64,000 bases of DNA from Anaerolineales bacterium (GCA_018335275.1 JAGXKM010000001.1:8154-72153), one strand, 5' to 3'; positions 17,597 to 63,997 are shown, numbered from the stretch's first letter. Made by a program: numbers and translations. Notes: generated by a model from the sequence alone, not told the origin.

Positions 17597-20500
17597 TTAT
17601 TCTACGATCACGCGGTCGCTGCCGCTGCGCCCGAAGACTTCGGGGGAATACATTTCCTCCGCTTTGGCAGGGGGAACGACGAAATTTCCGGGCGTGGTCG
17701 CTCGAGCGACATACGTATATTCATACACCCCATCCCAGAGCAAATTTGTGAAAGCTTCCGCCCTCTCATCGCGCATGTTCTGGTGGTTGTACCAGGTGCC
17801 CCACCACCACCAGCCAAAACGATACTCTTCCCCGTCCGGATCCTCCGGAACGCTGCCGGAGACAGCCAAAGCAGGATTGATGATCTCCAACCCCGCAGGG
17901 AGCGGATCAACCAGCGCGACATGGTATCGACGGTTATCCGCCACCATGGTCAGCCGCACCCGGACCCGGGCCCCAGCTTTGATATGCCAGGTCCCATCCT
18001 CCTCCTGCCAGACATCCTCGGGGTCATCGACCGCCTCATACTCCCGCTGGACCACAAAGCCCATATCCAGGGGATCCAAATCCAGATCCGTGGGCGCGTA
18101 CTTCAACCCCAAACGATAGTAAAGGCGTCCCGGACCTTCCTTGCTGATTACCAGGTCTCGAGTCTCCCCACCTTTTTCCTCGACGAGGAAGGACATCGGA
18201 ATCTGAGTCTCCTTGCGTTCCGTTGTCCGGCCCACAAACCTATGCGCCCCGGCGTAGGTTTCACCCAACCAGATCCGGGCCACGAACTCTGGTGTCTGTT
18301 TCTCAAAGGTATTGAAATAGCGGTCCAGCGCCAAAAGGACGAAGACGTTTTCCTGCGTGTTCCCCCACCGTCCTTTCTCCCGGTGTGCCAACAGACCAGT
18401 GACCAGCTTGGGAATCAGGTCGCTCTCCGGGTTGTCAGCGATCAAAGCATCCAGAAGGATGGCATCCGTGCGGCGGTTCGATCCCAGGAGGAGGTAATTC
18501 TGGTCATCGTATTGCGTGGTGAAATTCGCCGCCCCTGCAGTTTCCACCACCCGGTTTCCCACGTAACGGCGGATGGATTCAAGTTCCTCCGTGGAGCCGG
18601 GGGAATCCACCAAAACCTGCCAGATCCAACCCACAGCATCTAACCTCAGCTCCTCGATCCCAGCGTCGTTCAGCAAATTCCTCGCTTTCAAAGGGTCGCT
18701 GTCCCCCATCAGATCACGCACATAGAGAGCATAAGCGCTGAGAGTATTCCGTGTATCCTCGCTGTACCAGGATGGGAAATGACGCTCAATCTCCCGCAGA
18801 TAGCTCAAAAGTCGGTCCTGAGTCTCCTCCGGGACCTCAAATCCTTTCATTTCAGCCCGCTGCAGGGCATGCGCGACGTGAATGGTGTGGAAGGGGATGG
18901 ATTCTCTGCCTTTTCGCCAGTAACCATACCCACCGTCATTGTTTTGCAAGCGCTGCAGTTCTTCGATGTCCCGTTTCACAGCAGCTTCCAATTCCAGCGG
19001 CGAGGGCAAACCATCCGCCTCGAAAGCGCTGAGGACATCCCGCAGGGCAGCGATGCCCAGCACCCGGGAAGCAATTTGTTCCGAGCACTCATAAGGATAA
19101 GACGCCAGGTACAAGACGGCATCTGTGAGCGCCTGAAGCGCTGTGGAAGAGGTATTGACCTCCAATCCACCGAACTGAGGGAAGACATCTTCCGGGGCAG
19201 CAACCGGCTGGGCGACCGCTCCTTCATCGATCACCCCGTAGGTCGCGAAAGCTTCGGAGGTCGCCGGTGTATAGACCGGAAGCTGACCAAAGGCAGCGTC
19301 CTCATACTTCCCAGCAACAGCTGCCGCCTGGAAATGGACCGTCCCCGCCCTCTCAGTGGAAGCTGGGAAACGGACCTCGACTCGATCGTTCGCCGGGACC
19401 GTCACCCGGATCCCTTTCTCCTCCAGATCCAGATTGTTGGCCCGGATGACCACATCCGTCTCCAGCGGTTCATCGGTTTGATTCTGGAGCACAATGGGAA
19501 GTTTGAACGCATCCCCGAAGTTTAAGAAACGGGGAGCAGAGGGGCGCACCATCAGCGGCAGGCGCGCAGTTAGATTCGCTTCAGCAGAGCCGAACTGCTT
19601 CCCCCCCTGATCCACCGCGACCACCATCACCCTGTAACGGGTCAGATTGTCCGGAACCTGAATTTGAATACTCGCTTCTCCACGGCTATCGGTCCGAACC
19701 TCCGGGGCAAAGGTAGCCAGGGGATTGAAATCCGTCCTGACCTCGATGGGCTCTTGGGCAGCCGCTTCTCCTCCCCCTAATCCCGCCACATCCGCAGATT
19801 TTTCCTGGGGTGCTTCCGCCATCGCTTCTTCTTCCATGGCCCCCTCTACCGCCATAGTGGCCATGGGCTGATTTCTCCCCCCCACTTCCTGACTTTCATC
19901 CACCAATGTCTGGGGATCGACCAGGACGATATTGGCCCGGCTGTAAAATCCTTGAAAACCCGCTGATCTGGTTTGATAAAAAACGGAAAGGGGATCCGTC
20001 AATTGATAATCCGTCAAAGCCAGAATGGCCTCATCTACCACGACAACAGCCATTTCCGCGTTTTGAACAGGCTCTCCACGGGCATCGGTAATCTCCAAAT
20101 TCAAGTTTGTTGTCTCACCCGGCGCCAAGGCTTGATCTTCCAGCTCCGCTGCCACGGACAAAGTCCGCTCCAAAGGTGGGATTTCCAGGTTGATCTGCCC
20201 GGTAGCGTAGGCAGGCCGCGGTGCGATACCTTCCATTTCTCCCCCTGCTTCATCGATGCGGGGAGCAGAACCCACCACATCCACCTGGAGATGTAAATTG
20301 GGAAGATATGCCTCTTTGATCGGGATGCGAAGCGTCGTGCTTCCCTCTGTAAAGGAAAAACTCTGGGTATCAATGATCCCGCTGCGGGCAATGGTCAGCA
20401 GACCCTCCCCGGATTGGAACGGCGCCTGGACCAAAATCTCAGCTACCTCTCCAGGTTGATAGGTTTCTTTATCCGGGACCAGGGTCACTTCCTCCCGCTC

Positions 20501-23500
20501 CACCTTCCGGGAAGGCGGGCGCTGCCCCCCACTCACCCAGCGCACAAGGCGGCTCTGGTTCACACGGCCCTGTTCATCCGTGATTTCCGCTGTGATTTGA
20601 TACCGGCCTCCAGCTGGAGTATCAAAGGAGCAGGTCACAGGCTCGCTTTTTGACCCCTCGCTGCACTCCTGAATGTCAACTTCCTTTTCCTGCCATTGTC
20701 CATCCTCGTATTTCCACTCCAAACGGGCAGCTTCGACAAGGATGGGACGATCTGAAACTGGGTTCCCGTCCAGATCCGTGACGATCAGGTCCACATCCAA
20801 CGAGTCCCCTTGCTGGACAAAATAGCGCTCCGTACGCATCCCCACATACAGATCAGCAGGATGGACCATGAGGCTGGTGTTGCTGGCCCAGGCTTGACGA
20901 TTGACATCAAACACGGTAGCTTCCGCCTGCAAACTGTAGGGGCGCGGCGTCTCCACATCTTTGAAGTCAACCTTCAGGTAATGCGTGCCGGACGCATCAG
21001 TCCGACCGGAGAAAGTGCTTCCCGAACCCTGGCCCTGCGGACCAGGTCCCCCTCTGAAGATCCACCATGGCGTCCACATCCCGAATGTGAAATCAGGCCA
21101 ATTTGGAGGCTGGTAATTCGCGGCCTGGGAATTCACACGCCATTCCACATCCGCATTAGGCAGAGGACCCCCGGCATAATACGCAGCTTCAACACCGAGC
21201 ACCGCTTGATCGCCGACGAAATACGGACCCGTGGACTCATTGCGGGCTTTGACTTCAAACTCAGGCCGCCGGAATTCTTGAATCTGGAACATGTGCCAAT
21301 GCTGGTTCGTACGCATCCCCCCTGCACTCCCCAGAGATCGCAATACCAGTTGAGCAGCGCCGAGGTTGATGTTTTCAGGCAGGCTGAAGGAGAAATCAAA
21401 CCCTCCCCAGGCATTCAATTCCGTCTGTCCCTGCGTGATCTCATTCCCCTGCGGCCCGTTTACCTGATAGTGAACGCCCGTGATCCCATCCCCGACCAAC
21501 TCCACATCTCCGGTCTCCGTCGTGCCAATCCGCCGCATCCAGCCTTTGACATGGACTTCCTCTCCCGGTTTGTACATCTCCCGATCATCGAACACATACC
21601 AGCGCAATTCATCCATCACGGACCTTTTTTCCCACTTTCCCGACCCCCAATAGGAACTTGACGAGGGGAGTAATGCCTGATCCTCCCCTTTGGAAGCGAC
21701 CAGGTAAGAGATCCCTCCTGCCGGGATGCCAAATCGAGCGATACCATCCTGATCCGTTTCGCTGAGTATACTTTGAATTTCAGACCTTATGGTCACCCCG
21801 GAAAGCGGTGTGCCATCCTGTAAAGCGGTCGTCCAGACCACCATCTCGCTGTGGTCCTTAAAGGCATCCAATCCTATCTGTGTGACCTGGACCCAGACCT
21901 GGACCGTTTCCCAATACCGCTCCTCCTTGAACAACTCTTTAGGGGGTTTGACGATGACGATAAATTGACCATATTCACCTGACATCACTTCACTCAGATC
22001 AACGGGGACTTCAGTCAGGGTATCCGCGCCCCCCTCCACCGGGAGAGAGGAATCAAATACCAATTTCCCGGGAGGATTTGGGGGATCATCTCTCCGCTGG
22101 TAATCCTGCAAATACGCTTTGAAATCCGGCCAGTGGGAGGTGTTCACGTCGTAAATCCTGACATCCAAGCGGTCATAATTAATCGCATAGAGTGACAAGA
22201 CAGGCCGCTTAGAAGCAGGGTCAAGGGTAACCAGTGTCTGTCTCGGACCATATAAAACGGGCTCAGCAGGTCCGATCCTAAACTTTACCGTTTGATCCTC
22301 GCCTAAAGTCTGCCCAAAGACATCCTTTATCTCCCCATCCAAGGTCACGCGGTACGTCGTCCGGGGCTTTGTCGCACCCTGGATGTTGATCGTATTACCG
22401 TAGATATTCACCGTCGCGTCAGGCAGCTCCGGTTGGATCCGCAGCATCCCTTCTTGATAAGCGTCTGTATCCAGGGGATTGTTAAAGCGAATGAACAAGG
22501 GTGTTAAAGGTCGACATTTCGGGCCTCCCCAAGAGCAGCCGTGCTCCTGTACCCGCAGGGGTGGATAGGTATAAAAACTGAATCCCTGCCCGCTATCTGT
22601 CTTTAAAGGTCCTTCGGCAGAAGGCGTACCGGGACCGATATCCACTGTGATGGTCGTGTCCGCGGGTAATGGCTCTTGACTGCGAAAGGCCAGCCAACGA
22701 CCCTCCATCGCGTCATCCACCATGCGGCTCACCCTTTCATCCTCCTGGATTTCTTCCTCTTTGGCCAGACGCACAGGGATAACCTGCCCTCCAGCGGAGA
22801 CGCGGATCGTATCAAGGACCGCTTCCGGCTCGATGCGTTGATCAAAGGAAGCGAAGAGCAGGGGATCCAGAGGCTGGGGCCCCTGGGAAGGGTAATAAGT
22901 TTGCAGAGTTGGAGGCGGCGTTTGGAACCTGAATTGAACCGCTTCTTCCAATCTCTCTCCAGAAACCGACTCCACCCCTTCAGGAATCGTGACCTGATAC
23001 GCAGTGGCCATGGGCAAGCGGTCGATGTCTTCAGAATCAGATTGGAAATTTAACGTCCTCGTCCCCAGCCAGTGCCATGAACCCGGAACACCTGGATCTA
23101 TCTCTACCGGTACATCCTCATCCGCCAATCCTTGTAAAGTGTCCAAAGGCACCATGGGCTGGTTAAAGGTGACATTGACGAAAGGCGCGATGGGGACTTC
23201 TCCCTGCGGCGCGTATCGCAAAACTTTTAAAGGCTGATCTTCAACCGGGCCTGGACCCCCGGTCTCGCCAGGAGAAGGGAAGACAACCTCGATGGTCTGG
23301 CCCGTGCGGGGCGGAGGCAGCACTTCATCCGGGAGGTTAAACTCCATCTCCAAGCCTTCTGCGTCAGGCAAATCAGGCAGCCGGGAGAATATATCCAGGA
23401 TCTCACCCTCAAGGAGCGGCTCTCCCTCCGCCATCTGTGGACCTTCAGCGGGGTCAGGTTGCGCACTCCCGTCACTGAGGTCAAAGATCAGGCCGGAGCC

Positions 23501-23689
23501 ATCCCCTTCTTCTCCATTTTGGGCTCCGATCTGCTCACCGTTTGAAGAGGGGCCTGTATCCAGAGGAATAGGTTGATCATCAAACAAGTCCATGTCGATC
23601 ACCTGGGTGAGACTGCACCCCATGCCGACAACCAAAACCAATCCAATTCCGATTAGTTTTCGCCAAGATAAGCGCGTGTGCTCAAACAT
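17597..23689 (-). CDS. Bacterial alpha-2-macroglobulin family lipoprotein with a thioester motif
   Basis: 2030 aa. The N-terminal signal has a lipobox-like VVGMGC. YPYECSEQIAS carries the CxEQ thioester (19076-19087, in frame), and the rest is long MG-domain-like beta-rich sequence. Confidence 0.85.
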   Translation of the reverse strand: MFEHTRLSWRKLIGIGLVLVVGMGCSLTQVIDMDLFDDQPIPLDTGPSSNGEQIGAQNGEEGDGSGLIFDLSDGSAQPDPAEGPQMAEGEPLLEGEILDIFSRLPDLPDAEGLEMEFNLPDEVLPPPRTGQTIEVVFPSPGETGGPGPVEDQPLKVLRYAPQGEVPIAPFVNVTFNQPMVPLDTLQGLADEDVPVEIDPGVPGSWHWLGTRTLNFQSDSEDIDRLPMATAYQVTIPEGVESVSGERLEEAVQFRFQTPPPTLQTYYPSQGPQPLDPLLFASFDQRIEPEAVLDTIRVSAGGQVIPVRLAKEEEIQEDERVSRMVDDAMEGRWLAFRSQEPLPADTTITVDIGPGTPSAEGPLKTDSGQGFSFYTYPPLRVQEHGCSWGGPKCRPLTPLFIRFNNPLDTDAYQEGMLRIQPELPDATVNIYGNTINIQGATKPRTTYRVTLDGEIKDVFGQTLGEDQTVKFRIGPAEPVLYGPRQTLVTLDPASKRPVLSLYAINYDRLDVRIYDVNTSHWPDFKAYLQDYQRRDDPPNPPGKLVFDSSLPVEGGADTLTEVPVDLSEVMSGEYGQFIVIVKPPKELFKEERYWETVQVWVQVTQIGLDAFKDHSEMVVWTTALQDGTPLSGVTIRSEIQSILSETDQDGIARFGIPAGGISYLVASKGEDQALLPSSSSYWGSGKWEKRSVMDELRWYVFDDREMYKPGEEVHVKGWMRRIGTTETGDVELVGDGITGVHYQVNGPQGNEITQGQTELNAWGGFDFSFSLPENINLGAAQLVLRSLGSAGGMRTNQHWHMFQIQEFRRPEFEVKARNESTGPYFVGDQAVLGVEAAYYAGGPLPNADVEWRVNSQAANYQPPNWPDFTFGMWTPWWIFRGGPGPQGQGSGSTFSGRTDASGTHYLKVDFKDVETPRPYSLQAEATVFDVNRQAWASNTSLMVHPADLYVGMRTERYFVQQGDSLDVDLIVTDLDGNPVSDRPILVEAARLEWKYEDGQWQEKEVDIQECSEGSKSEPVTCSFDTPAGGRYQITAEITDEQGRVNQSRLVRWVSGGQRPPSRKVEREEVTLVPDKETYQPGEVAEILVQAPFQSGEGLLTIARSGIIDTQSFSFTEGSTTLRIPIKEAYLPNLHLQVDVVGSAPRIDEAGGEMEGIAPRPAYATGQINLEIPPLERTLSVAAELEDQALAPGETTNLNLEITDARGEPVQNAEMAVVVVDEAILALTDYQLTDPLSVFYQTRSAGFQGFYSRANIVLVDPQTLVDESQEVGGRNQPMATMAVEGAMEEEAMAEAPQEKSADVAGLGGGEAAAQEPIEVRTDFNPLATFAPEVRTDSRGEASIQIQVPDNLTRYRVMVVAVDQGGKQFGSAEANLTARLPLMVRPSAPRFLNFGDAFKLPIVLQNQTDEPLETDVVIRANNLDLEEKGIRVTVPANDRVEVRFPASTERAGTVHFQAAAVAGKYEDAAFGQLPVYTPATSEAFATYGVIDEGAVAQPVAAPEDVFPQFGGLEVNTSSTALQALTDAVLYLASYPYECSEQIASRVLGIAALRDVLSAFEADGLPSPLELEAAVKRDIEELQRLQNNDGGYGYWRKGRESIPFHTIHVAHALQRAEMKGFEVPEETQDRLLSYLREIERHFPSWYSEDTRNTLSAYALYVRDLMGDSDPLKARNLLNDAGIEELRLDAVGWIWQVLVDSPGSTEELESIRRYVGNRVVETAGAANFTTQYDDQNYLLLGSNRRTDAILLDALIADNPESDLIPKLVTGLLAHREKGRWGNTQENVFVLLALDRYFNTFEKQTPEFVARIWLGETYAGAHRFVGRTTERKETQIPMSFLVEEKGGETRDLVISKEGPGRLYYRLGLKYAPTDLDLDPLDMGFVVQREYEAVDDPEDVWQEEDGTWHIKAGARVRVRLTMVADNRRYHVALVDPLPAGLEIINPALAVSGSVPEDPDGEEYRFGWWWWGTWYNHQNMRDERAEAFTNLLWDGVYEYTYVARATTPGNFVVPPAKAEEMYSPEVFGRSGSDRVIVE

Positions 23690-50638: not shown

Positions 50639-51364
50639 TTAAATTCCATTTCCCACGCGTCGGACGATGTGAAAATGAAAGTAACCCGGTAAAAAGTAGC
50701 TGTAAGAATAATCAACCACACGTCCCCTCGTAGAACATAACTCCGAACGGAAAACTAAAAGAGGAGCATGCCGCTGGATATCCAGCGCACTGGCAATTTC
50801 TGAAGACGCGCCGGCGGCGTTGATTTCCGTGCGGGAGCTGGCCAGAAGAGGCTGATCTTTCTTTAATAACAAATCCAGAATCGAACCCGTAAAATCCAAC
50901 GTGATCTCTGCTGCCGATAAGATATCCATGGGTAAGATATCAATCAGATAGGCAACAGGACGGTTCTCTGCCATGATAACCCGTGACACATGGGTGACTT
51001 CTGCTCCAGGTTCCAAACCGAGCGCTTCCCTTGCTTCCTCAGACGCAGGTTTTTGTTCCACGATCAGTTCGCCCATGGAAACGGGAAGCCCAATTCTCTC
51101 TGCCAGGGTTTCCAGACTGACCAAATGCTCCAGCCCGCTTTCAAAAACCTGTGTAGGGTGGATCACAAATGTGCCCACCCCCTGCTTCCTGCGCAGCAAT
51201 CCTCGGGTTTCAAAAGTTCTCATCACTTCCCTGAGCGTTGCGCGGGACACGTCAAGTTGATCCGCGAGTTTGGGTTCCGATGGCAGCCGTTCCCCGGTCT
51301 CCATGTCAGCTATGATCACACTTAAGCGTTCCTTGACGGTTTCTGATACTCCTTGTCCGCTCAT
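50639..51364 (-). CDS. GntR-family transcriptional regulator, HutC/UTRA subtype
   Basis: 241 aa with an N-terminal wHTH (LPSEPKLADQLDVSRATLREVMRTFETRGLL) and a UTRA-length C-terminal domain. There is an ATGA overlap with the adenine deaminase stop. Confidence 0.8.
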   Translation of the reverse strand: MSGQGVSETVKERLSVIIADMETGERLPSEPKLADQLDVSRATLREVMRTFETRGLLRRKQGVGTFVIHPTQVFESGLEHLVSLETLAERIGLPVSMGELIVEQKPASEEAREALGLEPGAEVTHVSRVIMAENRPVAYLIDILPMDILSAAEITLDFTGSILDLLLKKDQPLLASSRTEINAAGASSEIASALDIQRHAPLLVFRSELCSTRGRVVDYSYSYFLPGYFHFHIVRRVGNGI

Positions 51365-53178
51365 AATTTCACTTCTTCAATTGCTGGAATGAGTTCAAAT
51401 TTCTCTGCATCAACCAATCCAAGATCCGAGATCCGTAAAGCGGGAATGACCACTAACGCCAGAAGACTGAGCTGCATATTTGGATTTTTAATTGTGCACC
51501 CGCACTGCCTGAATCCCTCTAACACCGAGGCAGCTTCTTTAGCTACCCGTTCAGCCCGTTTATCAGACATCAAGCCAGCGATCGGCAAAGGGACCTTTCC
51601 GATCACAGCATCCTCTTTGATCACGACCTGTCCCCCCTGCATCTCAACCAGTTCATTGGCTGCGCGCGCCATCTGTGCTTCATCCGTGCCCACCACAATC
51701 ATGTGATGGGAATCATGGGCAACCGTGCTGGCGACAGCGCATCCCGCTTCGAGCTCAAATCCCTGAACCAGTGCCACCTGCACATCCCCCGTGGCATTGT
51801 GCCTTTCTACCAGGGCGATCTTCGCCAAATCACGTTCCAAATCCACCTTGATCTCGCCGTCCTCGGCCTGAACGGAAACCTGTACATGCTTGGTGGGGGC
51901 CTGACCTTCCATGACGCCTATGACATGAGCCACCAGATTATCTCCAGCGGTTCCCTCCGGGACCCGCAAACGGAAATCCTCAGCCTGAAGCGACCTTTTG
52001 ACATTCACGGAGTGTGTCGCCCAGCGTGGATATTCCACCTCGGGCAAATCAACCACCAAGCTCCCGCTCTCCGCGATCACATGGCCCTTGGCCACCACGG
52101 TCTGAACATGGAAATCGTCCAAATCCGGGACCAGGAGGATATCCGCAAAGCGTCCGGGGGCAATCTGACCCATATCCTTGGCCACACCAAAATGTTCCGC
52201 TGTGTTCAAAGTCGCCATCTGGATCACAGTAAGAGGGTCCACACCCAAATCGATGGTATGCCGGACCACGCGATCCATGTGTCCTTCGGTGACCAGGGTT
52301 TCAGAGTGAGTGTCATCCGTACAGAGCAGGAAATGCCGGGAGTCCAGACCTTCCTCAGTGACAGCCTTAATCTGAGCAGCGACATCCAACCAGCCGGACC
52401 CATAACGCAGCATGGCTTTCATGCCCTGTCGAACACGCTTCAATGCATCCACCTTCCGCGTCCCTTCATGATCATCTTCAGGGCCACCTGCCGCATACCC
52501 ATGAAATGGTAAGCCAAGATCAGGAGAAGCATAATGCCCTCCGATCACTTTCCCCGCATGCCGGGTGGCAGCCATTTCAGCGTGCATTTTTCGATCATTT
52601 TGGAAGACGCCGGGAAAATTCATCATCTCTCCCAATCCGATGATCCGCTCCCATGCCATGGCCTCTTTAACGTCTTCCGGTCCAATGCGAGCACCCGGCG
52701 TTTCCAATCCAGGGGCAGAGGGAACGCAAGAGGGAACCTGCACCCAAACATGAATGGGCTGTTTTTCCGCCTCTTCTGCCATCAGGCGGACACCTTTGAG
52801 CCCAAACACATTAGCAATTTCATGAGGATCGACAAACATGCCCGTCGTCCCCTGAGGTGCTACCGCCCGGACGAACTCTGTGATGGTAACCATGCCCGAT
52901 TCAATATGCATATGAGCATCCAAGAGGCCAGGGACCAGATATTGACCTTCCGCCCGGATGACCTCCGTTTCATCCCCCACAGCATGAGACGCATCCTCCC
53001 CCACAAAAGCGATTCGCTTTCCAGCAACGGCCACATCTATTCCGGGCAATATCTCTCCCGATTGTACGTTCACCCACTGCCCTCCCGTGATCACCAGGTC
53101 AGCGGGGGTTCTTCCCATCGATACGTTTACCAGCTTCTGTGTTCGTTCACGGATGTCATCTACGTGCATTCTACACAC
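51361..53178 (-). CDS. ade: Adenine deaminase
   Basis: 605 aa with PGLLDAHMHIESGM; the two-domain Ade architecture and length fit. Confidence 0.85.
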   Translation of the reverse strand: MCRMHVDDIRERTQKLVNVSMGRTPADLVITGGQWVNVQSGEILPGIDVAVAGKRIAFVGEDASHAVGDETEVIRAEGQYLVPGLLDAHMHIESGMVTITEFVRAVAPQGTTGMFVDPHEIANVFGLKGVRLMAEEAEKQPIHVWVQVPSCVPSAPGLETPGARIGPEDVKEAMAWERIIGLGEMMNFPGVFQNDRKMHAEMAATRHAGKVIGGHYASPDLGLPFHGYAAGGPEDDHEGTRKVDALKRVRQGMKAMLRYGSGWLDVAAQIKAVTEEGLDSRHFLLCTDDTHSETLVTEGHMDRVVRHTIDLGVDPLTVIQMATLNTAEHFGVAKDMGQIAPGRFADILLVPDLDDFHVQTVVAKGHVIAESGSLVVDLPEVEYPRWATHSVNVKRSLQAEDFRLRVPEGTAGDNLVAHVIGVMEGQAPTKHVQVSVQAEDGEIKVDLERDLAKIALVERHNATGDVQVALVQGFELEAGCAVASTVAHDSHHMIVVGTDEAQMARAANELVEMQGGQVVIKEDAVIGKVPLPIAGLMSDKRAERVAKEAASVLEGFRQCGCTIKNPNMQLSLLALVVIPALRISDLGLVDAEKFELIPAIEEVKL

Positions 53179-53218: not shown

Positions 53219-54631
53219 TCATTGGACCAACTGCTGCGCTAATTGGTTGTGAGTTTCTATCAACTGGTCGACATCTGCGGTGACCAGGGCACCTTCCTTG
53301 ACCACAAATTTTCCACCCACAACGTTGTAAGCGACTCCCCGCGGTGCACAAAAAGGCAGGGCTGCAACCGGATCGTGCAGCGCACCCGCATAACTAACCT
53401 GGCTCAAATCCAGGGCTATAAAATCGCCGGCCTTCCCCTCTTCCAACGATCCGATGTCAGAACGTCCCAGCACGGCTGCTCCCCCGCGGGTTCCCATCTC
53501 CAGCGCTTGCCGCGCAGACATGATCGGGAGGTGTTCTTCATTTGAGCGGGAAGCGCCTAACATCCCCGCTCTCAACCGAGCTAAAAGCATCGCCTGCCGG
53601 ACTTCTTCCAGCATATGTGAACTGTCATTGCTGGCTGAACCATCCACCCCCACACCCACATCAATCCCAGCCTGCAACATATCCAGGATGGGGGCCGCTC
53701 CCGAAGCCAGCCGCATATTCGAACTCGGGCAATGGGCAACCCCACAGTGATTTTCCGCATACACATCCAGCTCCTGCTCATTGACGTGAACGGAATGAGC
53801 GAACCAGACATCGGGTCCGATCCAATCCACCTCTTCCATATAAGCTACAGGGCGGTGGCCAAATTGCTCCAGGCAAAAATCGATTTCATCCTCTGTCTCC
53901 GACAGGTGGGTATGCAGACGCACCCCATAGTCACGGGCTAACGCTGCGCTTTCCCTCATCAGATCACCCGTGACGCTGAAAGGTGAACACGGCGCCAGCA
54001 CAATTTGCACAAAGGAACCTGGTTCAGGATCATGATAGGCTTCAATCACCCGCTGCGAATCGCGGAGAATTTCATCTTCACCCTCCACCACACTGTCCGG
54101 GGGAAGTCCTCCTTTGCTCTCCCCCAGACTCATCGAACCCCGAGAAGCATGCAATCGCAAACCGATCTCTTGGGCAGCTTGAATCTCATCATCCAAGCGA
54201 GAGCCGTTAGGAAATAAGTAGAGATGATCCGAAGCCGTCGTGCAGCCCGATAAAGCCAACTCAGCCAGGGCAGTCTTCGTGGATACCCTGATATGCTCCG
54301 GTCCCATTCGCGCCCAGATGGGATAAAGTGTTTTCAACCAGTGAAAAAGATTTACATCTTGAGCATCCGGGATCACCCTGGTTAACGTCTGATAAAAATG
54401 GTGATGCGTGTTCACCAGCCCAGGGAGAACAATATGCCCGGAAAGATCAAGGATCTCCTCTGCCTGACCAGGCAAAGAGTCAGTGGGTCCCACCGCTTCA
54501 ATGAACCCGTCCTTAATAAAAATACCACCGCCTTTGATTTCGCGGCGGTGGTCATCCATCGTGACTAAAATATCTGCGTTCTTGATCAATAAAGTGCCCA
54601 TTAGATTCATCCACTTGTTAATCCTGAACAA
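53219..54631 (-). CDS. Amidohydrolase of the guanine/8-oxoguanine deaminase (SsnA/AtzB-like) group. The true start may be at 54610 or 54601.
   Basis: 470 aa with LIKNADILVTMDD, GLVNTHHHFYQTLTR, HLSET and GVDGSASND. Confidence 0.75.
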   Translation of the reverse strand: MFRINKWMNLMGTLLIKNADILVTMDDHRREIKGGGIFIKDGFIEAVGPTDSLPGQAEEILDLSGHIVLPGLVNTHHHFYQTLTRVIPDAQDVNLFHWLKTLYPIWARMGPEHIRVSTKTALAELALSGCTTASDHLYLFPNGSRLDDEIQAAQEIGLRLHASRGSMSLGESKGGLPPDSVVEGEDEILRDSQRVIEAYHDPEPGSFVQIVLAPCSPFSVTGDLMRESAALARDYGVRLHTHLSETEDEIDFCLEQFGHRPVAYMEEVDWIGPDVWFAHSVHVNEQELDVYAENHCGVAHCPSSNMRLASGAAPILDMLQAGIDVGVGVDGSASNDSSHMLEEVRQAMLLARLRAGMLGASRSNEEHLPIMSARQALEMGTRGGAAVLGRSDIGSLEEGKAGDFIALDLSQVSYAGALHDPVAALPFCAPRGVAYNVVGGKFVVKEGALVTADVDQLIETHNQLAQQLVQ

Positions 54632-54805: not shown

Positions 54806-55921
54806 TTAGAATAAGTTCATGCCCAGGAGATAATTCGCCAAGGAAGGATACAACAAACCAAAGACAGTAAATGCCAGGATCAAGATCAGACTTAAAAGTG
54901 CCAATAAAGCAAGGCATCCACCTCGAAACCTTTCCGCCCGGGATGGGGAGGATGATCCATTTTCATTCTTCACCAAAAGGGAAGAGGACTTTTCCTGCTC
55001 GTGGTCACCTAAATCTTTTGTGATGATCCGGGGAGGGCTGGAACCCTCCTGAGCCTCTCCTTCCCTTTCCTTTACTTCATCCCGGGGCCTGCTGAAGTTG
55101 AGTGAGAACCGCCCGCTCTGCGCTTTCAACAATTCATTTTTAAACTCTGCTGCCAATTGGAAGCGGTTCCCGGGGTGGACCTCAAGGGCCTTCTCAATGG
55201 CATCCGCCACTCTCCGGGAAACTTTAGGGTTCCGCTCCCGGACAGGGGTCAACTCCTCCTGATCCATTGTTCGCGCCAGGCTGTCCTCAGGCGTGATCCC
55301 TGTCAGGACTGTATATAAGGTTGCCCCCAAGGAGTAAATATCCGTCCTGGGATCTGTTCGAGCAGCCCCATACTGCTCGGGTGGAGAGAACCCCATAGTC
55401 ATCGCCCGGGCACCCGTTGAGGTCGTCTTATCTCCCTGGATGATCTTCGCCAGCCCAAAATCCACAAGATAAATTTCTTCTCGGGGCGTGATTCTGACGT
55501 TGCCTGGTTTGATATCACGGTGTAATACCACAGGATCGTGAGAGTGCATATAAGCAAGCGCGTCACAAATCGCGGCCCCGATCACAACCACTTCTTCTTC
55601 AGGGATGAACTGATAGCGCTCCATCCTTTCCTGAAGGTCCTCCCCCTCTACATAATCCATAATCAAGTATTGCCCCTGATCTTCCATGGAAAAGTGGTCT
55701 GTCACACGAGGCAGATTTCGATGCCGCAGACTGGCCAAGATGACCGCTTCCCGCTTAAACTGCCGGGTATAATCTTCGATGGTGAACAGATTCTCTTTTA
55801 CGGCAACCTCTACCCCCAGGTTCTCATCCACCGCACGGTAGATGGAACCCATCCCCCCCTGACCAAGGACTTCGATAATGCGGTATCGATCTTTAAGGAG
55901 AGAACCTTGATTGAGGGTCAT
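54806..55921 (-). CDS. Ser/Thr protein kinase with a C-terminal membrane anchor
   Basis: 371 aa with GQGGMGSIYRA, VAVKE, HRDIKPGN and DFGLAK, plus a C-terminal hydrophobic helix. Confidence 0.85.
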   Translation of the reverse strand: MTLNQGSLLKDRYRIIEVLGQGGMGSIYRAVDENLGVEVAVKENLFTIEDYTRQFKREAVILASLRHRNLPRVTDHFSMEDQGQYLIMDYVEGEDLQERMERYQFIPEEEVVVIGAAICDALAYMHSHDPVVLHRDIKPGNVRITPREEIYLVDFGLAKIIQGDKTTSTGARAMTMGFSPPEQYGAARTDPRTDIYSLGATLYTVLTGITPEDSLARTMDQEELTPVRERNPKVSRRVADAIEKALEVHPGNRFQLAAEFKNELLKAQSGRFSLNFSRPRDEVKEREGEAQEGSSPPRIITKDLGDHEQEKSSSLLVKNENGSSSPSRAERFRGGCLALLALLSLILILAFTVFGLLYPSLANYLLGMNLF

Positions 55922-58068: not shown

Positions 58069-59091
58069 TCATGTTTGATTTCCCTGTTCGCCTTTTCCTA
58101 AAGGCATTTCCTTTTCCTTCCAAACGATGATTTCCTTCAACCATCGGGACATGTCCTGATAATAAACAAAACTGGCTGCCAACACTCCAGTAGTCACAAA
58201 AGCGTGACCGGTGACGCTGATCAACATCAACCAGGAATCTCCAGGGGCAACCTGCCATACGACATCCAATCCCTGGGTTATTAATATCGCCAGAATGATG
58301 AAAAAACCCGTCTGTAAAAATGATAGCCCGGTCATGCGGATGCTTTCATATACCGAACGCCAAGCTCTTTTCTTTCCTGTGAAAATGCCGTGAGGCGAGA
58401 AAAAAAGCGGAAACATCATCCACAGGTACAAGAAACTGAAAATGAGTAAAGCCCCTTGGGCAAGCAAGGTGTTCACAAGAGCCGCGCCCGTAATCAAGCA
58501 ACCCCCAAGTAAAGAGACTGCAAAAAACAAACCCAGCCAGATCAAACTCAGCAGCACAGTGTGCTTGATCAACCACGGCCCCCGGGCGATTACTTCGCGC
58601 CACCGGACACGATCATAAAGCGCAGCTTGACATACTGCCGCATAATAAATTACTCCCAAGACCATGCCCACTAACAGAAAACTGAGTACGAATAAAAAGG
58701 CATTTCCTGGACTTTCCACTTCCACAAACATGGGCTCACCAAGAGGGGTTGAAATCGGAAGTACCGAGCTCAATAAGCTAAAGATCCCCACCGGAAAAGA
58801 CCGAAGTGCGGCAACCAGATTCAACCTTTCCGCGAAAACCGTCCACATCTCCCGGCTGGCTGTTACGAGTTCTTCCAACTCCGGGTTGTCCAGGGTTGGA
58901 AAGGAGAAAAATCCCTTTATCAGCCCCTCCATTAACCCCTTAATCCGCATATGAGGGGCAAACCAGATGATTAAATCCAAGACGAGTGGAAACAAGATCA
59001 AGCCTATATGTTGTGTGATGGCATCAAATCCAATTCGTATTGATTTTAACGTTTTTGGGGGCTCAGGCATACGGTTTTCTTTACTCATCAT
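58069..59091 (-). CDS. Polytopic membrane protein, unknown function
   Basis: 340 aa with about 7 hydrophobic segments and no assignable motif. Confidence 0.5.
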   Translation of the reverse strand: MMSKENRMPEPPKTLKSIRIGFDAITQHIGLILFPLVLDLIIWFAPHMRIKGLMEGLIKGFFSFPTLDNPELEELVTASREMWTVFAERLNLVAALRSFPVGIFSLLSSVLPISTPLGEPMFVEVESPGNAFLFVLSFLLVGMVLGVIYYAAVCQAALYDRVRWREVIARGPWLIKHTVLLSLIWLGLFFAVSLLGGCLITGAALVNTLLAQGALLIFSFLYLWMMFPLFFSPHGIFTGKKRAWRSVYESIRMTGLSFLQTGFFIILAILITQGLDVVWQVAPGDSWLMLISVTGHAFVTTGVLAASFVYYQDMSRWLKEIIVWKEKEMPLGKGEQGNQT

Positions 59092-59253: not shown

Positions 59254-59310
59254 CACATTTTAACAAAGTCTTGCAATCCCGAAAATCTTACATTCAAATA
59301 AGGAAGAAAA

Positions 59311-61296
59311 ATGAAACCCAAGATCGACCTTTTACTCACCAACGCGATCGTCCTCACCATGGACGAAGCGTTTAGAAAATACGATCATGGTGGTTTGGCT
59401 ATTCAGGGGGACCAGATCTATGCCGTGGGTTCCAGCGAGAAATTGAGGGAGGAATTCGAGGCTGATTCAGTGGTGGACTGCCAGGGAAAAGTAGTCATGC
59501 CCGGTCTGATCAACACCCATACTCATCTGGCCATGAACCTCCTGCGGGGGTTGGCTGATGACCTCCGGCTGGATGTCTGGCTGCTGGGATACATCATGCC
59601 TGTGGAGCGAGAATTTGTCTCCCCGGAATTTGTCAGGTTGGGAACCACCCTCGCCTGCGCGGAATTGATCCGATCCGGGGTGACCGCCTTTGCGGATATG
59701 TATTATTTTGAAGATCAAGTAGCCCAATCCGCGGCCGATGCTGGCCTGCGGGGGGTGTGTTCCCAGACCATCCTCAAATTCAAGGGCCCGGATGCCTCCA
59801 CGTACGAAGAAGCCCTTGATTCCGCGGAAACCTTGATCAAGAAATGGAAGGGGCATCCCCTGATCACCCCGGCTGTCGCCCCGCACGCAGCTTATACTTC
59901 CACAGAAGACATCTTAGCCTCCTCAAGAGAACTCGCGGTTTCTTCTGATGTCCCTCTCCACATCCACATCGCAGAGACCAGCAACGAGGTGGAAGAATGC
60001 ATCGAAAACTACGAAATGAGGGTCGTACACTATCTTGAAAAACAAGGATTGTTCTCGGCGAAAACGATCGCTGCCCACTGTGTCCACATTGATGAAAGCG
60101 AGATGCACACTTTAAATCACCACAATGTAGGTATCGCCCACAACCCGACTTCAAACCTCAAACTGGGATCAGGCATAGCCCCTGTACCGGCTATGTTGAA
60201 CGCTGGGTTAAATGTCGGCATCGGCACAGATGGGGTCTCTTCGAACAACGACTTGGATATGTTCGAAGAAATGCGTTTGGCCGCGCTGCTCGCTAAGGGA
60301 AACACAGGGGATCCAACGCTCCTTCCCGCTAAAACAGCCCTGGCAATGGCAACCAGGAGGGGAGCTGAAGCGATCCACATCGCCCACCAGACCGGTTCTT
60401 TGAGCGCCGGGAAGAAAGCGGATCTGATCATGGTCGATATTTCTACCTTGCATAATTCCCCCCGCTTCCATAATGACCCGGACGGCGTTTACGCCCAATT
60501 GGTCTATGCCGCGAAATCAACGGATGTCCAAGATGTTATGGTCAATGGTAAGTGGCTCATGCGGTCCCGAGAGTTATTGACTTTAGATGTGGAAGAGCTG
60601 CTCCCCAAAGCACAAAAAATCGCCGGGAAAATCGACCGATTCGTTTCCAAGCGCGAGCAGTCCGTTTACTCAAAGCTGATTGCGGTCGGAGGCGCAGTTG
60701 AACAAGAAAGTTATGAAGTACAGGCCAAGGTAAAAGTGGAAGACCCACAGGCTGTGATTAAAGCTCTGAAGAGTTCCGATTTGGAGATCATATACGACCG
60801 ACACTACCATGAGTATGACACGTATTTTGAATTCGAAGATTCGGAGGAGGGTTGGCTGCGGTACCGAGAAGATGAATTCATCAACGACCGAGGCGAGGTA
60901 TATGATATTCGATACCGTTTGACGCTTATTGGCCCGGAACGAGAACGAAAATTTCCCCAGGAAGTCCTCCTTTCCCGGAGCCGCTTCATCGCTCCTGCAT
61001 CCCACAGCCTCCGCTTTTACAGAGAATACTTCCAACCCACAGGAGAAACCTTTATTGAAAAAGACCGTTTGCGGTGGAAGGTCAGTTACCATGGAATCGA
61101 TTTTTACATTAATGTGGACCGCCTGGATGACCCAGATTTAGGCACATTCCTGGAGGTGAAAAGCCGAACATGGAGCCTCGAAGATGCGGAAAAAAAGTCG
61201 GAAATGGCAGATGATTTGCTCAACATCCTCGGCGTCTCCCCTCAAGAGCGCAGGACGGACGATTATGTCTTAATCGTTGAGTCAGAGTCAGCATGA
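59311..61296 (+). CDS. mtaD: Fusion: MTA/SAH deaminase (MtaD-type amidohydrolase) with a C-terminal CYTH (triphosphate tunnel) domain
   Basis: 661 aa. Residues 1 to about 440 have PGLINTHTHLAM, HIAET and GIGTDGVSSNNDLDM. The tail from about 455 has YEVQAKVKV, YDIRYRL and VDRLDDPDLGTFLEVKS, a CyaB/ThTPase-like pattern. Confidence 0.75.
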   Translation: MKPKIDLLLTNAIVLTMDEAFRKYDHGGLAIQGDQIYAVGSSEKLREEFEADSVVDCQGKVVMPGLINTHTHLAMNLLRGLADDLRLDVWLLGYIMPVEREFVSPEFVRLGTTLACAELIRSGVTAFADMYYFEDQVAQSAADAGLRGVCSQTILKFKGPDASTYEEALDSAETLIKKWKGHPLITPAVAPHAAYTSTEDILASSRELAVSSDVPLHIHIAETSNEVEECIENYEMRVVHYLEKQGLFSAKTIAAHCVHIDESEMHTLNHHNVGIAHNPTSNLKLGSGIAPVPAMLNAGLNVGIGTDGVSSNNDLDMFEEMRLAALLAKGNTGDPTLLPAKTALAMATRRGAEAIHIAHQTGSLSAGKKADLIMVDISTLHNSPRFHNDPDGVYAQLVYAAKSTDVQDVMVNGKWLMRSRELLTLDVEELLPKAQKIAGKIDRFVSKREQSVYSKLIAVGGAVEQESYEVQAKVKVEDPQAVIKALKSSDLEIIYDRHYHEYDTYFEFEDSEEGWLRYREDEFINDRGEVYDIRYRLTLIGPERERKFPQEVLLSRSRFIAPASHSLRFYREYFQPTGETFIEKDRLRWKVSYHGIDFYINVDRLDDPDLGTFLEVKSRTWSLEDAEKKSEMADDLLNILGVSPQERRTDDYVLIVESESA

Positions 61297-62165
61297 CCAA
61301 AGTCGCTCTTCTGGCAGATATCCACGCCAATTTCCCTGCCCTTCTGGCAGCTTCTGAACAAATCCAGCGCTGGAAACCAGATGCCGTCTATGTGCTCGGG
61401 GATTCCATCAACCGGGGTCCGCGACCCCGGGAATGCTGGCGCCATCTCGTGAAAATGCGCCGGGAACGGCATTGGAAACTTATTTATGGAAATCACGAGG
61501 ATTACGTCCTGAAGTTCGAGACCGAAGACGCTCCCCGATCAGGGCCCCGCTTTGAAATCCTCCAATTTGTCCACTGGACATATCAAAAACTTTCTCGGGA
61601 AGAGATCCAAACGCTCCGCAGTTTACCTGCCCAAATCGAGGAACATTTATCCACGGGTCAATATTTAAGGGCAGTACATGCTTCCATGGCAGGTTTACGG
61701 GCGGGTATCTACCCCCATACCCCACAAGAAAAAATACGCGAAATGATCCAACCCGCGCCTGATATCTTTTGCGTGGGCCATACCCATAAACCGCTTGCCC
61801 GCCAGATTGGACAGACACACGTCATCAACGCAGGCTCCGTTGGACTTCCTTTTGACGGCAATCCCCAACCGAGTTACGCAAAAATTTACACCACACTCGA
61901 TGAGGTAAGGGTGGAGATCTGCCGCTTTGATTATGATCGGTCGCAAGCTATCAAAGATTTCCATGAGACTCGTTTCCTGGATGAGGGCGGTCCCATGGTC
62001 AAGGTCATCTATCATGAATTATTATCAGCACAACCTCTCATCAACCGCTGGAACCAAAGTTATGAAGAGAAAGTCTTGAGTGGGGAATGCACGCTGGAGG
62101 AATCTGTAAAAGATTTCTTAAAAGGTATCCATATCCCCAAATTTTCCGCTGACCTTAAAGAATGA
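61293..62165 (+). CDS. Calcineurin-like metallophosphoesterase
   Basis: 290 aa with LADIHAN, LGDSINRGP, GNHEDY and GHTH. There is an ATGA overlap with the upstream stop. Confidence 0.8.
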   Translation: MTKVALLADIHANFPALLAASEQIQRWKPDAVYVLGDSINRGPRPRECWRHLVKMRRERHWKLIYGNHEDYVLKFETEDAPRSGPRFEILQFVHWTYQKLSREEIQTLRSLPAQIEEHLSTGQYLRAVHASMAGLRAGIYPHTPQEKIREMIQPAPDIFCVGHTHKPLARQIGQTHVINAGSVGLPFDGNPQPSYAKIYTTLDEVRVEICRFDYDRSQAIKDFHETRFLDEGGPMVKVIYHELLSAQPLINRWNQSYEEKVLSGECTLEESVKDFLKGIHIPKFSADLKE

Positions 62166-62189: not shown

Positions 62190-62990
62190 ATGATGAATAA
62201 TGAAATAACCTCTTTCGCTGTTAAGGTAGCAAGAGAGACAGGAAACTTGCTGCAGGATTTCTTTCAACTCAACGGGGTAAAGAGCAGTCTAAAAGCTGAT
62301 CACTCCCTGGTAACACAGGCAGATTTAGAAGCCGATAAACTGATCCGAAAAGCCATCCATGAGAGTTATCCCCAAGATGGGATCCTCAGCGAAGAACAAA
62401 ATACATCATACCCGGGTGGACATTCTTGTGTCTGGGTGGTAGATCCATTGGATGGGACGACCAATTTCAGCCTCGGATTACATTATTGGGGTGTATCCAT
62501 CGCCCGCATCAGAGATGGTCACCCCCAGACGGCGGTCGTCTACTTCCCTATTGTGGACGAATTATATGCTGCTCAACGGGGGGAAGGATTGCTTCTCAAC
62601 GGGGTCAAGCACTTCATCCCAGAGGCACAGAAATACAAGCCCCAGTCATTTTTTGCACATTGTTCCAGGACTTTCCAACGATATCAAGTGAACATACCTT
62701 ACAAGACTCGCTCACTGGGCGCGGCCGCTTACCACATTTGCGCAGTCGCCAAGGGATCAGCCATTCTCGCCTTAGAAACCACTCCCAAACTTTGGGATAT
62801 CGCAGGAGCCTGGCTGGTGGTTAAAGAAGGGGGTGGTTCCATAACCACACTCAAGGGTGGAAAACCATTTCCTGCCGTCCCAGGCGTGGATTATCAAAAC
62901 AAACCTTTCGTCACGTTAGCGGCCGCAAACCCATCATTGTTGAAAAAGGCACAACAAGGACTTATTCCTAAAAATCCACATAGAACATAA
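62190..62990 (+). CDS. Inositol monophosphatase / CysQ-family phosphatase
   Basis: 266 aa with [16 protein letters not shown] and WDIAGA. Confidence 0.8.
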
Positions 62991-62992
62991 AT

Positions 62993-63997
62993 ATGGAGGA
63001 AAACATGGAGTATCGATTTCTAGGTAAATCAGGTTTAAAAGTTTCCGCTCTCTCCTATGGTTCCTGGGTTACTTTTGGCTCCCAGATCGGGGTCGATGAA
63101 GCTCATGAAATGATGAGCATCGCTTATGAAGCCGGTGTTAACTTTTTCGACACCGCAGAAGTATACAGCAGCGGAGAAGCGGAAACGATCATGGGGAAGG
63201 TGATCAAAAAAGCGGGCTGGAAACGCTCTGACCTCGTCCTCTCCACCAAGATCTTCTGGGGTGGTGACGGCCCTAATGACCGCGGCCTGTCCCGTAAGCA
63301 CCTGATCGAAGGATTGGATGCTTCCCTGGAGCGCATGCAGACTGATTATGTTGACTTGCTATTTGCCCACCGGCCGGATAAGTTCACCCCCATAGAGGAA
63401 ACCGTTCGGGCCATGAATCACGTTATAGATCAGGGGAAAGCGTTCTATTGGGGGACAAGCATGTGGTCCGCTCAAGAGATCATGGAGGCTTACGCTGTGG
63501 CGCGACGAGAACACCTGATCCCCCCGCTCATGGAGCAGCCCCGGTACAACATGTTCCACCGGGAGCGCGTCGAAAAAGAATATCGCCGCCTCTATGAAGA
63601 AATTGGCCTGGGGACGACGATTTGGAGCCCCCTGGCAAGCGGTCTTCTGACTGGTAAGTACAACGAAGGGATCCCAAAGGATTCCAGGGCCAATGTGGAA
63701 GGGTATGATTGGTTGCGGGAGCGTTTCACGAGTGAAACCGCCCAACAAAATATAGAAAAAGTGAAAAAGATGATGCCCCTCGCGGAAGAAGTGGGATGCA
63801 CGATGGCGCAACTCGCCCTCGCCTGGTGCCTGGCCAACCCTCATGTCAGCACGGTGATCACAGGCGCTTCCAAACCTTCTCAGGTCGAGGAGAATATGAA
63901 AGCGATGGAAATCGTCGACAAACTTTCCCCCGATCTCCTGGAACGCATCGATGAGATCCTGGATAATAAACCGGATCTCCCCGGAGATTTTCGCTAG
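62993..63997 (+). CDS. Aldo/keto reductase (Kv-beta-like subgroup)
   Basis: 334 aa with [34 protein letters not shown] and ITGASK. Confidence 0.85.

Follow-up and report, generated by a model that had tools for sequence, protein, structure and literature searches.

The window analysed here, a 64,000-nucleotide stretch of one strand from an Anaerolineales bacterium (GCA_018335275.1, JAGXKM010000001.1:8154-72153), carries at positions 59311 to 61296 a gene that joins a deaminase-type amidohydrolase to a divergent CYTH/triphosphate-tunnel (TTM) domain. The amidohydrolase end retains its metal and catalytic motifs, and the tail has replaced, in a manner fixed across its family, two glutamates and one lysine that canonical tunnel enzymes use for a second metal site.

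A two-domain gene

The gene is organised as follows:

59311..61296, plus strand: deaminase-CYTH fusion gene, one open reading frame (ORF) with an ATG start, 661 amino acids (aa), stop included
59300..59306, plus strand: Shine-Dalgarno-like AAGGAAG, read directly from the sequence, the ATG lying 4 nucleotides downstream
59311..60636, plus strand: amidohydrolase domain of the cog0402 type, resembling deaminases of 5'-methylthioadenosine (MTA), S-adenosylhomocysteine (SAH), 5'-deoxyadenosine and adenosine, aa 1-442 (Pfam, NCBIfam, PDB)
59512..59529, plus strand: NTHTHL, HxH metal ligands H70 and H72, aligned to NLHGHS of 4f0r
59959..59979, plus strand: HIHIAET, metal-ligand His219 and catalytic Glu222 (HxxE), aligned to HCHIHET of 4f0r
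60070..60087, plus strand: AAHCVH, active-site His256, aligned to AAHMVH of 4f0r
60220..60234, plus strand: IGTDG, metal-ligand/catalytic Asp307, identical in 4f0r and 4dzh
60601..60690, plus strand: two-helix linker, aa 431-460, well conserved (SKLIAIGG), with helices at 431-449 and 452-460 and a predicted local distance difference test score (pLDDT) of about 65-77
60697..61290, plus strand: predicted divergent CYTH/TTM domain, aa 463-660 (AlphaFold2, Foldseek, Pfam matches of family members, hhalign)

A preliminary description of the locus, made from the sequence alone, had reported one uninterrupted ORF of 661 aa, and the ORF listing returns exactly this frame. Its TGA stop shares an ATGA overlap with the ATG of the next gene, and base composition is uniform between the two halves. 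An identical protein in the public databases (P0001) bears the label 'amidohydrolase family protein [Anaerolineales bacterium]'. A missed stop or frameshift, which the same description had named as one way in which its reading could fail, was looked for across related loci, and an origin from two genes is not borne out. The frame is unbroken over at least 640 aa at 77 of the 84 fusion loci fetched, and more than 120 clusters at 90% identity are full-length fusions, 65-100% identical to the window protein. Because of this, the fusion is a real single gene encoding a two-domain cytoplasmic protein, and no assembly artefact.

The seven remaining loci comprise three at contig ends and four that are interrupted (L001, L002, L074 and L078). 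In L001 and L002 the neighbouring genes for CinA and for a phosphatase of the inositol monophosphatase (IMPase) superfamily are split too, which marks these assemblies as frameshifted. Indel errors in assemblies of this type yield spurious 'stand-alone CYTH-like' database proteins. Two apparent stand-alone tails on megabase contigs, P0226 and P0228, were rejected as frameshift splits, neighbouring genes being broken in the same assemblies. That a sequencing or assembly error joined adjacent genes, or that the tail is the remnant of a decaying pseudogene, is next to impossible. These few separate short proteins and the four interrupted loci are what speaks for such an artefact. Against it stand the split neighbours in at least two of the four, the unbroken frames from independent assemblies and the tail itself, on which purifying selection acts as it does on the deaminase domain. 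Mean conservation is 0.83 in the tail and 0.83 in the deaminase domain, an equality that speaks for a function under selection and not for decay.

The N-terminal domain is readily placed. Residues 61-416 match the whole Amidohydro_1 profile of Pfam (1-345 of 345, E 1e-77), and the nearest solved structure is the MTA/SAH deaminase Cv1032 of Chromobacterium (4f0r, E 6e-92). Other close relatives in the PDB are 4dzh, 3lnp, the Pseudomonas proteins 4dyk and 4gbd (PA3170) and TM0936 of Thermotoga (1p1m), the deaminase alignments spanning 420-435 residues with E-values from 6e-92 to 1.5e-67. NCBIfam places the domain among its TRZ/ATZ, MTA/SAH and 5'-deoxyadenosine deaminase models. An alignment of 26 family members shows no variation at H70, H72, H219, E222, H256 and D307, all of which have their counterparts in 4f0r and 4dzh. 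Since its metal and catalytic motifs are all intact, the domain is complete and looks active as a zinc amidohydrolase.

Sequence comparison alone is far less generous with the tail. Taken on its own, the window tail has no Pfam match even at E<=10 and only chance matches in a phmmer search of the PDB, and a profile of the tail family finds nothing among PDB sequences. TIGR00318 (cyaB) is the sole NCBIfam model to touch it, at 17.5 bits against a cut-off of 57.95. Pfam CYTH (PF01928) is matched by the tails of 6 of 19 close family members, the best at E 9e-8. AlphaFold2 models the tail with confidence (pLDDT 86.9, predicted template modelling score (pTM) 0.83) and in the strand pattern expected of CYTH/TTM proteins. 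Foldseek returned 53 PDB matches to this model at E<=1e-3, and the 50 listed are CYTH/TTM proteins and chains of Mediator Med18. The Yersinia class IV adenylate cyclase (AC-IV; 3n0z/2fjt) comes at the top (E 5e-9, probability 1.0). Further matches include Vibrio 2aca, Pyrococcus 1yem, the Sulfolobus enzyme SaTTM (7ns9), thiamine triphosphatases (ThTPases), AtTTM3, 5a65 and AtTTM1 (7z67, E 1.2e-6). With hhalign, the tail profile and a four-sequence CyaB/SaTTM profile were related at 93% probability in global mode (E 4e-8) and at 71% in local mode; single-sequence templates gave probabilities of 1-6%, nonetheless in the correct register. Together, the structural models indicate that the tail is a true but highly divergent CYTH/TTM fold. 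The preliminary description had recognised by eye an MtaD-like amidohydrolase fused to a CYTH-like domain, and Pfam, the PDB alignments, the model and Foldseek agree on this. Its proposed check of the tail with hidden Markov models leads the same way by way of the relatives and Foldseek, the window tail alone remaining below threshold.

The tunnel signature

The residues of the tail were mapped by aligning, with hhalign, a profile of 73 non-redundant tails to authentic PDB sequences, those obtained being YpAC-IV, Vibrio 2aca, SaTTM, 1yem, NeuTTM and human ThTPase. The register agrees across four independent runs (YpAC-IV, SaTTM and the CyaB/SaTTM profile), and gives the following motifs:

60715..60729, plus strand: E469-V-Q471-A-K473, the ExExK hallmark in which Gln takes the place of the second Glu, aligned to E10/E12/K14 of YpAC-IV
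60817..60825, plus strand: D503-T-Y505, DxY retained, aligned to DIY of YpAC-IV and SaTTM
60853..60867, plus strand: W515-L-R517-Y-R519, both phosphate-binding arginines of xRxR kept, R517/R519 aligned to V61/R63 of YpAC-IV
60910..60936, plus strand: R534-Y-R536-L-T-L-I540-G-P, T-x-K-G-P with Lys replaced by Ile, I540 aligned to K76 of YpAC-IV and to the Lys of TYKGP in SaTTM
60973..60984, plus strand: S-R556-S-R558, start of the segment LLSRSRFIAPAxHSLRFYREYF, family-specific and near-invariant
61060..61074, plus strand: K584-D-R586-L-R588, phosphate-binding strand KxR(xR), aligned to K111/R113 of YpAC-IV
61141..61176, plus strand: G-T-F-L-E615-V-K617-S-R619-T-W-S, last barrel strand, metal-1 Glu kept, metal-2 Glu replaced by Lys, followed by an invariant Arg
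61261..61266, plus strand: D651-Y652, Tyr of the C-terminal plug helix, invariant in both family alignments and aligned to the Tyr of RSYRQLL in YpAC-IV

The preliminary description had read E-V-Q-A-K as an ExExK motif with Gln for its second Glu, and LGTFLEVKS (within residues 610-618) as the C-terminal ExE strand with Lys for its second Glu. Both registers hold against YpAC-IV and SaTTM: the catalytic residues are not intact, and the reading by eye was correct. The last strand, encoded by GTFLEVKSRTWS, places E615 on E136 of YpAC-IV and on the first Glu of EIE in SaTTM (within EFIEIE), and K617 on A138 of YpAC-IV and on the second Glu of the same EIE. D603 aligns to D126 of YpAC-IV. The strand that carries I540, whose counterpart in YpAC-IV reads IVKGP, bears two conserved arginines (R534 and R536) ahead of it. 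The segment starting at R556 replaces the canonical helix region and has no counterpart in the YpAC-IV and SaTTM alignments.

What these exchanges may mean follows from work on canonical enzymes. In the mechanism described by Martinez et al. 2015 and Vogt et al. 2021, the triphosphate-metal complex is bridged at metal 1 by the first ExE Glu, which never varies, metal 2 is held by both ExExK glutamates and the second ExE Glu and activates the attacking water, and mutation of the metal-binding glutamates cripples TTM activity (PMC4641920, PMC8233210). The Lys of T-x-K aids substrate binding and orients the first Glu of ExExK (PMC4641920, PMC8233210); the roles of DxY and xRxR are given by the motif rules of PMC8233210. 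On the alignment, both Glu losses, Q471 and K617, fall on metal site 2, and a third element of that site, the Lys of T-x-K, is lost as well. Metal site 1 (E615) is intact, and two of the three metal-2 ligands and the orienting Lys are replaced.

These exchanges are a property of the family. In a set of about 380 unique tails, drawn from proteins and from genome loci, position 469 is Glu in 352 of 353, position 471 Gln in 359 of 361 and never Glu, and position 473 Lys in 364 of 365. On the last strand, Glu occupies position 615 in 381 of 382 tails, Lys position 617 in 379 of 381 (Glu never) and Arg position 619 in 374 of 380. Position 540 is I, L, T, V, M or A, with Lys in 0 of 394. Q471, K617 and a residue other than Lys at 540 are therefore fixed in the family and not the product of drift. 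The fixed signature, ExQxK ... T-x-[ILV]-G ... ExKSRTW, extends to P0341, which at 40% identity is the fused homologue that diverges most and which keeps EMQIK ... YVEVKSRAW.

The basic and structural positions are held as firmly. DxY (D503, Y505) is 98% conserved, R517 and R519 each occur in 384 of 386 tails, and the KxR(xR) strand (K584, R586, R588) is conserved at 98-99%. Among the other arginines, R534 is found in 375 of 393 tails, R536 in 378 of 394, R556 in 380 of 387, R558 in 382 of 388 and R568 in 379 of 385. About twelve Arg or Lys positions each reach 95-99%, a group that D603 joins. Position 515 is variable (W142, R70, Y49, Q29, L24, H20 and others), Trp being the residue of the window's clade. 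Along the predicted strands, conserved and less conserved residues take turns, as a tunnel lining would lead one to expect.

The diagnostic motif rules of Vogt et al. 2021 (PMC8233210) exclude two familiar activities. As a class IV adenylate cyclase the tail is rejected, since HF-x4-ExExK is missing (V463 and E464 occupy positions -6 and -5, the family having E/T/S and E/Q), R517 is kept and residue 617 is Lys, not Ala. As a thiamine triphosphatase it is rejected on the thiamine-stacking aromatic residue of W/YxRxR, which is not conserved at position 515 of the family.

Genomic context and distribution

The genes around the fusion are the following:

61293..62165, plus strand: metallophosphoesterase, YfcE-like (Pfam Metallophos_2 and Metallophos; NCBIfam below cut-offs)
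62190..62990, plus strand: IMPase-superfamily phosphatase, HisN/SuhB/CysQ-like (Pfam Inositol_P E 3e-49; NCBIfam equivalogs all below cut-off)
62993..63997, plus strand: Kv-beta-type aldo-keto reductase (TIGR01293, 'voltage-dependent potassium channel subunit beta', 421 bits against a cut-off of 365)
54806-55921, minus strand: Ser/Thr protein kinase with a PknB-like catalytic domain (below cut-off), between a deaminase pair and gyrB
53219-54631, minus strand: protein of the '8-oxoguanine deaminase' model (NF006055, 678 bits against a cut-off of 532)
51361-53178, minus strand: adenine deaminase (TIGR01178, 510 bits against a cut-off of 472.5)
50639-51364: GntR/PhnF-like regulator
17597-23689, minus strand: very long ORF of 2030 aa, with several ORFs of at least 200 aa on the opposite strand within its span

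The gene order in the window's clade is gyrB (minus strand), a membrane protein (minus strand), the fusion, the metallophosphoesterase, the IMPase and the Kv-beta aldo-keto reductase. The metallophosphoesterase follows the fusion in about half of the related loci, the IMPase-family gene in most loci with enough flank and the aldo-keto reductase lies downstream in most related loci. A PDB relative of the metallophosphoesterase, 3qfm, may be an ATP/ApnA hydrolase. The membrane protein (58069-59091, minus strand), divergent from the fusion, is a hydrophobic, apparently multi-pass protein of 340 aa. Neither Pfam nor NCBIfam nor PADLOC matches it, and it occurs beside gyrB in 28 related loci, mostly at 47-52% identity and at up to 95% in the closest. 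Outside this clade (L001-L002 and L032-L084), most loci have a CinA-like gene of about 380 aa, with MoCF_biosynth and CinA_KH domains, directly upstream of the fusion on the same strand, and the IMPase and aldo-keto reductase genes are often found downstream. The context of the divergent homologue P0341 differs (L085 5001-7861): a decarboxylase dependent on pyridoxal phosphate lies upstream, the start of a PfkB-family sugar/nucleoside kinase gene overlaps the fusion stop, and a Tubulin_2-domain protein is encoded nearby.

No conserved genes of the S-adenosylmethionine (SAM) cycle were found in the neighbourhood of the fusion, in the window or at related loci, and a PADLOC scan for defence systems gave no matches. 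A role in anti-phage defence was rejected on this result and on the conserved housekeeping context beside gyrB. Farther upstream, the two purine-type amidohydrolase deaminases lie 5-8 kb from the fusion, which brings three members of the superfamily within 10 kb; the protein at 53219-54631 is 33% identical to the N-terminal domain of the fusion and lacks a CYTH tail. The Ser/Thr kinase gene is syntenic in one related locus (L003).

The fusion was found in at least 519 species-representative genomes, and the best 80 of these are nearly all Anaerolineales/Chloroflexota metagenome-assembled genomes. A search of 1.84 billion representative proteins with the tail profile returned 278 matches; among the listed matches inspected, no other architecture was seen, all being fusions or fragments that keep the amidohydrolase end. 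The fusion is thus conserved across hundreds of species of Anaerolineae (Chloroflexota), and a true stand-alone tail was never seen. One contig labelled as an 'uncultured Nitrosomonadaceae' genome (L013, CAXMRF010000007.1) carries a fusion with 76% tail identity in exactly the Anaerolineales synteny of gyrB, membrane protein, metallophosphoesterase, IMPase and aldo-keto reductase. It is probably a mis-binned Chloroflexota contig.

A putative phosphate-binding module and its relatives

We favour, with a probability of about one half, a reading in which an active adenosine-type deaminase is coupled to a TTM module that binds a phosphate ligand without hydrolysing it and acts as a regulator. It is suggested by the selective loss of metal site 2, by the retention of the substrate-binding side and by analogy with TTM1 and TTM2 of Arabidopsis (AtTTM1/2). 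The N-terminal domain would deaminate 5'-substituted adenosines (MTA, SAH, 5'-deoxyadenosine, adenosine) to the corresponding inosine analogues. The tail keeps the substrate side of the tunnel (metal-1 Glu615, Lys473, RxR, KxRxR, DxY, the plug Tyr and extra conserved arginines) and has lost the water-activating metal site 2 through the changes from Glu to Gln471 and Lys617 and through Ile540 in place of the orienting Lys. Such a tunnel would most likely bind a ligand bearing a tri- or polyphosphate, perhaps with its metal, and leave it unhydrolysed by the canonical two-metal route. It could then serve as a sensor or allosteric module that ties the activity or the assembly of the deaminase to the phosphate ligand, as proposed for plant TTM1/2.

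The preliminary description had seen in the tail either a ligand-sensing or regulatory module or a triphosphatase of changed chemistry, and the Gln and Lys substitutions, in register, support this pair. Its further proposal, that the tail links the disposal of two classes of SAM by-products, adenosyl nucleosides and tripolyphosphate (PPPi), finds no support, as conserved SAM-related neighbours are absent and metal site 2 is lost. PPPi hydrolysis is hardly to be expected of a TTM domain without metal site 2. Moreover, the PPPi that arises as SAM is made is cleaved by SAM synthetase itself while still bound to the enzyme.

Several observations weigh against the favoured reading. On the deaminase side, the nucleoside substrate is suggested by the nearest solved relatives only, and every NCBIfam deaminase equivalog cut-off is missed: the best score, for NF006549 (PRK09045), is 465 bits against 540, followed by 371.4 against 522 for NF005557 (the DadD model) and 348.7 against 779 for NF012037. 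In the full-length model (mean pLDDT 87.7, pTM 0.74, linker pLDDT 65-77) how the two domains lie relative to each other is predicted with moderate confidence only. In the tunnel, E469 and the metal-1 Glu are retained, so that at least one metal could still bind, and a Lys can stand in for a metal ion, which may allow residual or altered catalysis. Weak pyrophosphatase activity is found even in AtTTM1/2 (PMC9582702).

The last of these points lead to a bifunctional enzyme, in which the CYTH domain would be active with altered chemistry, holding a metal at site 1, using Lys617 and Gln471 in place of metal 2 and hydrolysing PPPi, pyrophosphate, polyphosphate or nucleoside triphosphates. We regard this as rather unlikely. 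Q471 and K617 are themselves strictly kept, beyond a mere loss of Glu, which suggests a specific role, and E469, E615, DxY and the basic residues are retained. AtTTM1/2 lack ExExK and ExE, yet hydrolyse pyrophosphate weakly (PMC8233210, PMC9582702), and AC-IV enzymes function with Ala at the second ExE position (PMC8233210). However, replacing the metal-2 glutamates with Ala or Asp strongly lowers the activity of plant and bacterial TTMs, and equivalent mutations also compromise RNA triphosphatases, a clostridial polyphosphatase and an adenylate cyclase of the TTM class (PMC4641920). The fusion lacks three separate elements of site 2 at once, and the structure of AtTTM1, with its Gln substitutions, binds no metal and was judged incompetent (PMC9582702).

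The tunnel could instead anchor a substrate of the fused enzyme, holding the phosphate chain of an adenosine 5'-polyphosphate (ATP, adenosine tetraphosphate (Ap4), diadenosine tetraphosphate (Ap4A) or adenosine thiamine triphosphate) while the adenine enters the amidohydrolase site. MtaD-type enzymes accept varied 5' substituents, their known substrates being SAH, MTA, 5'-deoxyadenosine and adenosine, and this tolerance fits such a role. So do the neighbouring genes, phosphoesterases for phosphorylated small molecules, and Trp515, which gives the window's clade a ThTPase-like WxRxR; both RxR arginines favour the TTM/ThTPase binding orientation (PMC8233210). Yet W515 is not conserved in the family, the domain placement is predicted with moderate confidence only, a housekeeping enzyme that turned ATP into ITP would do harm, and no defence system using such chemistry was matched by PADLOC. 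The closest solved relatives, moreover, take nucleosides and not nucleotides, and we hold this anchoring to be quite improbable. Very improbable, in our view, is a role confined to structure or oligomerisation, with the CYTH barrel serving as a ligand-free scaffold. Non-catalytic CYTH-like folds do exist, as the Med18 matches illustrate, and CyaB-type CYTH proteins are dimers. Against a scaffold, the conserved E469, K473, R517, R519, K584, R586, E615, K617 and R619 occupy alternating positions that match the canonical tunnel lining. Because these positions align with the Arg, Lys and Glu that line the tunnel, they point to a ligand site and not to a packing surface.

A bolder reading, which we consider unlikely, makes the tunnel a dedicated tri/polyphosphate receptor (for PPPi, polyphosphate, ATP, Ap4A or a thiamine or adenosine triphosphate derivative) that gates adenosine-type salvage across the Anaerolineae or presents the fused active site with an adenosine 5'-polyphosphate. 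If true, the case of presentation would amount to a new nucleotide deaminase and to the first bacterial pseudo-TTM regulatory module.

CYTH/TTM domains are usually regarded as enzymes, and to our knowledge only plant TTM1 and TTM2 offer a 'dead' tunnel domain that is joined to another enzyme and has been characterised structurally. The fusion family would be a testable case of a tunnel domain repurposed from catalysis to ligand binding, and of the control of adenosine, MTA and 5'-deoxyadenosine salvage by phosphate or energy state in a little-studied phylum. Most members escape Pfam CYTH, and for this reason current labels ('amidohydrolase', 'MTA/SAH deaminase') overlook the 200 residues of the tail domain. 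Fusions of CYTH on record involve HD, exopolyphosphatase, nucleotidyl-kinase and CHAD domains (PMC8233210). The searched literature contained nothing relevant on a CYTH/triphosphate tunnel paired with an amidohydrolase or deaminase, in line with the first impression that this architecture is not a described one. Neither the two domains nor the idea of an inactive tunnel domain is new, unlike the partner, the motif signature and the spread across a bacterial lineage.

Each half has well-characterised relatives. The HxH, HxxE, His and Asp motifs, together with 'APHA' and 'P-x-E', are identical in the fusion, in the cog0402 MTA/SAH deaminases (4f0r, 4gbd, 1p1m) and in archaeal DadD; the characterised cog0402 MTA/SAH deaminases are single-domain proteins of about 405-470 aa, to which the fusion adds a CYTH tail of 200 aa. 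With canonical TTMs and ThTPases (SaTTM 7ns9, NeuTTM 2fbl, YgiF 5a60, AtTTM3 5a67, mammalian ThTPase 3tvl) the tail shares the predicted eight-stranded tunnel fold, the ExExK Lys, both RxR arginines, KxR, DxY, the metal-1 Glu and the plug Tyr. It differs from them in Q471, K617 and I540, which replace two metal-2 glutamates and the orienting Lys, in its extra near-invariant Arg-rich segment (SRSRF...SLRFYREYF) and in never being free-standing. CyaB (Yersinia 2fjt/3n0z, Vibrio 2aca) provides the best Foldseek folds, and AC-IV enzymes too have a residue other than Glu at the second ExE position; the tail departs from CyaB in keeping the first RxR Arg, a small residue in AC-IV, in lacking HF-x4-ExExK and in having Lys617, not Ala. 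Basic or neutral residues at the acidic-patch positions, with the metal-1 Glu retained, are also seen in the TTM domain of the yeast polyphosphate polymerase Vtc4p (PMC4641920). Vtc4, however, belongs to a eukaryotic membrane complex with an SPX domain, and the tail has no sequence match or ranked structural match to it, so that polymerase activity would be pure speculation.

The closest functional precedent appears to be AtTTM1/2, which combine a nucleoside kinase with a TTM domain that has Gln for both ExExK glutamates and binds no metal (PMC9582702). That domain, whose basic walls and plug Tyr are kept, was called 'catalytically incompetent'; a (tri)phosphate metabolite is its proposed ligand, and regulation of the kinase its proposed role (PMC9582702). 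As in AtTTM1/2 (7z67, a uridine/cytidine-kinase-like P-loop domain with a TTM domain), the fusion joins a nucleoside enzyme to a C-terminal TTM domain with Glu-to-Gln change in ExExK, basic tunnel walls and a plug-helix Tyr. Unlike the plant proteins, it is bacterial, has a zinc amidohydrolase deaminase in place of the kinase, and carries neither coiled-coil nor membrane anchor. Whereas both motifs are lost in AtTTM1/2 (PMC8233210), the fusion has Gln at the second ExExK Glu only and keeps the first ExE Glu, the second being Lys. Its nearest folds are of the CyaB/SaTTM type and not of the plant TTM cluster, the likeness to AtTTM1/2 being one of features only. On these features, the fusion family would be a bacterial counterpart of plant TTM1/2, large (at least 519 species), tightly conserved and built on a different nucleoside enzyme.

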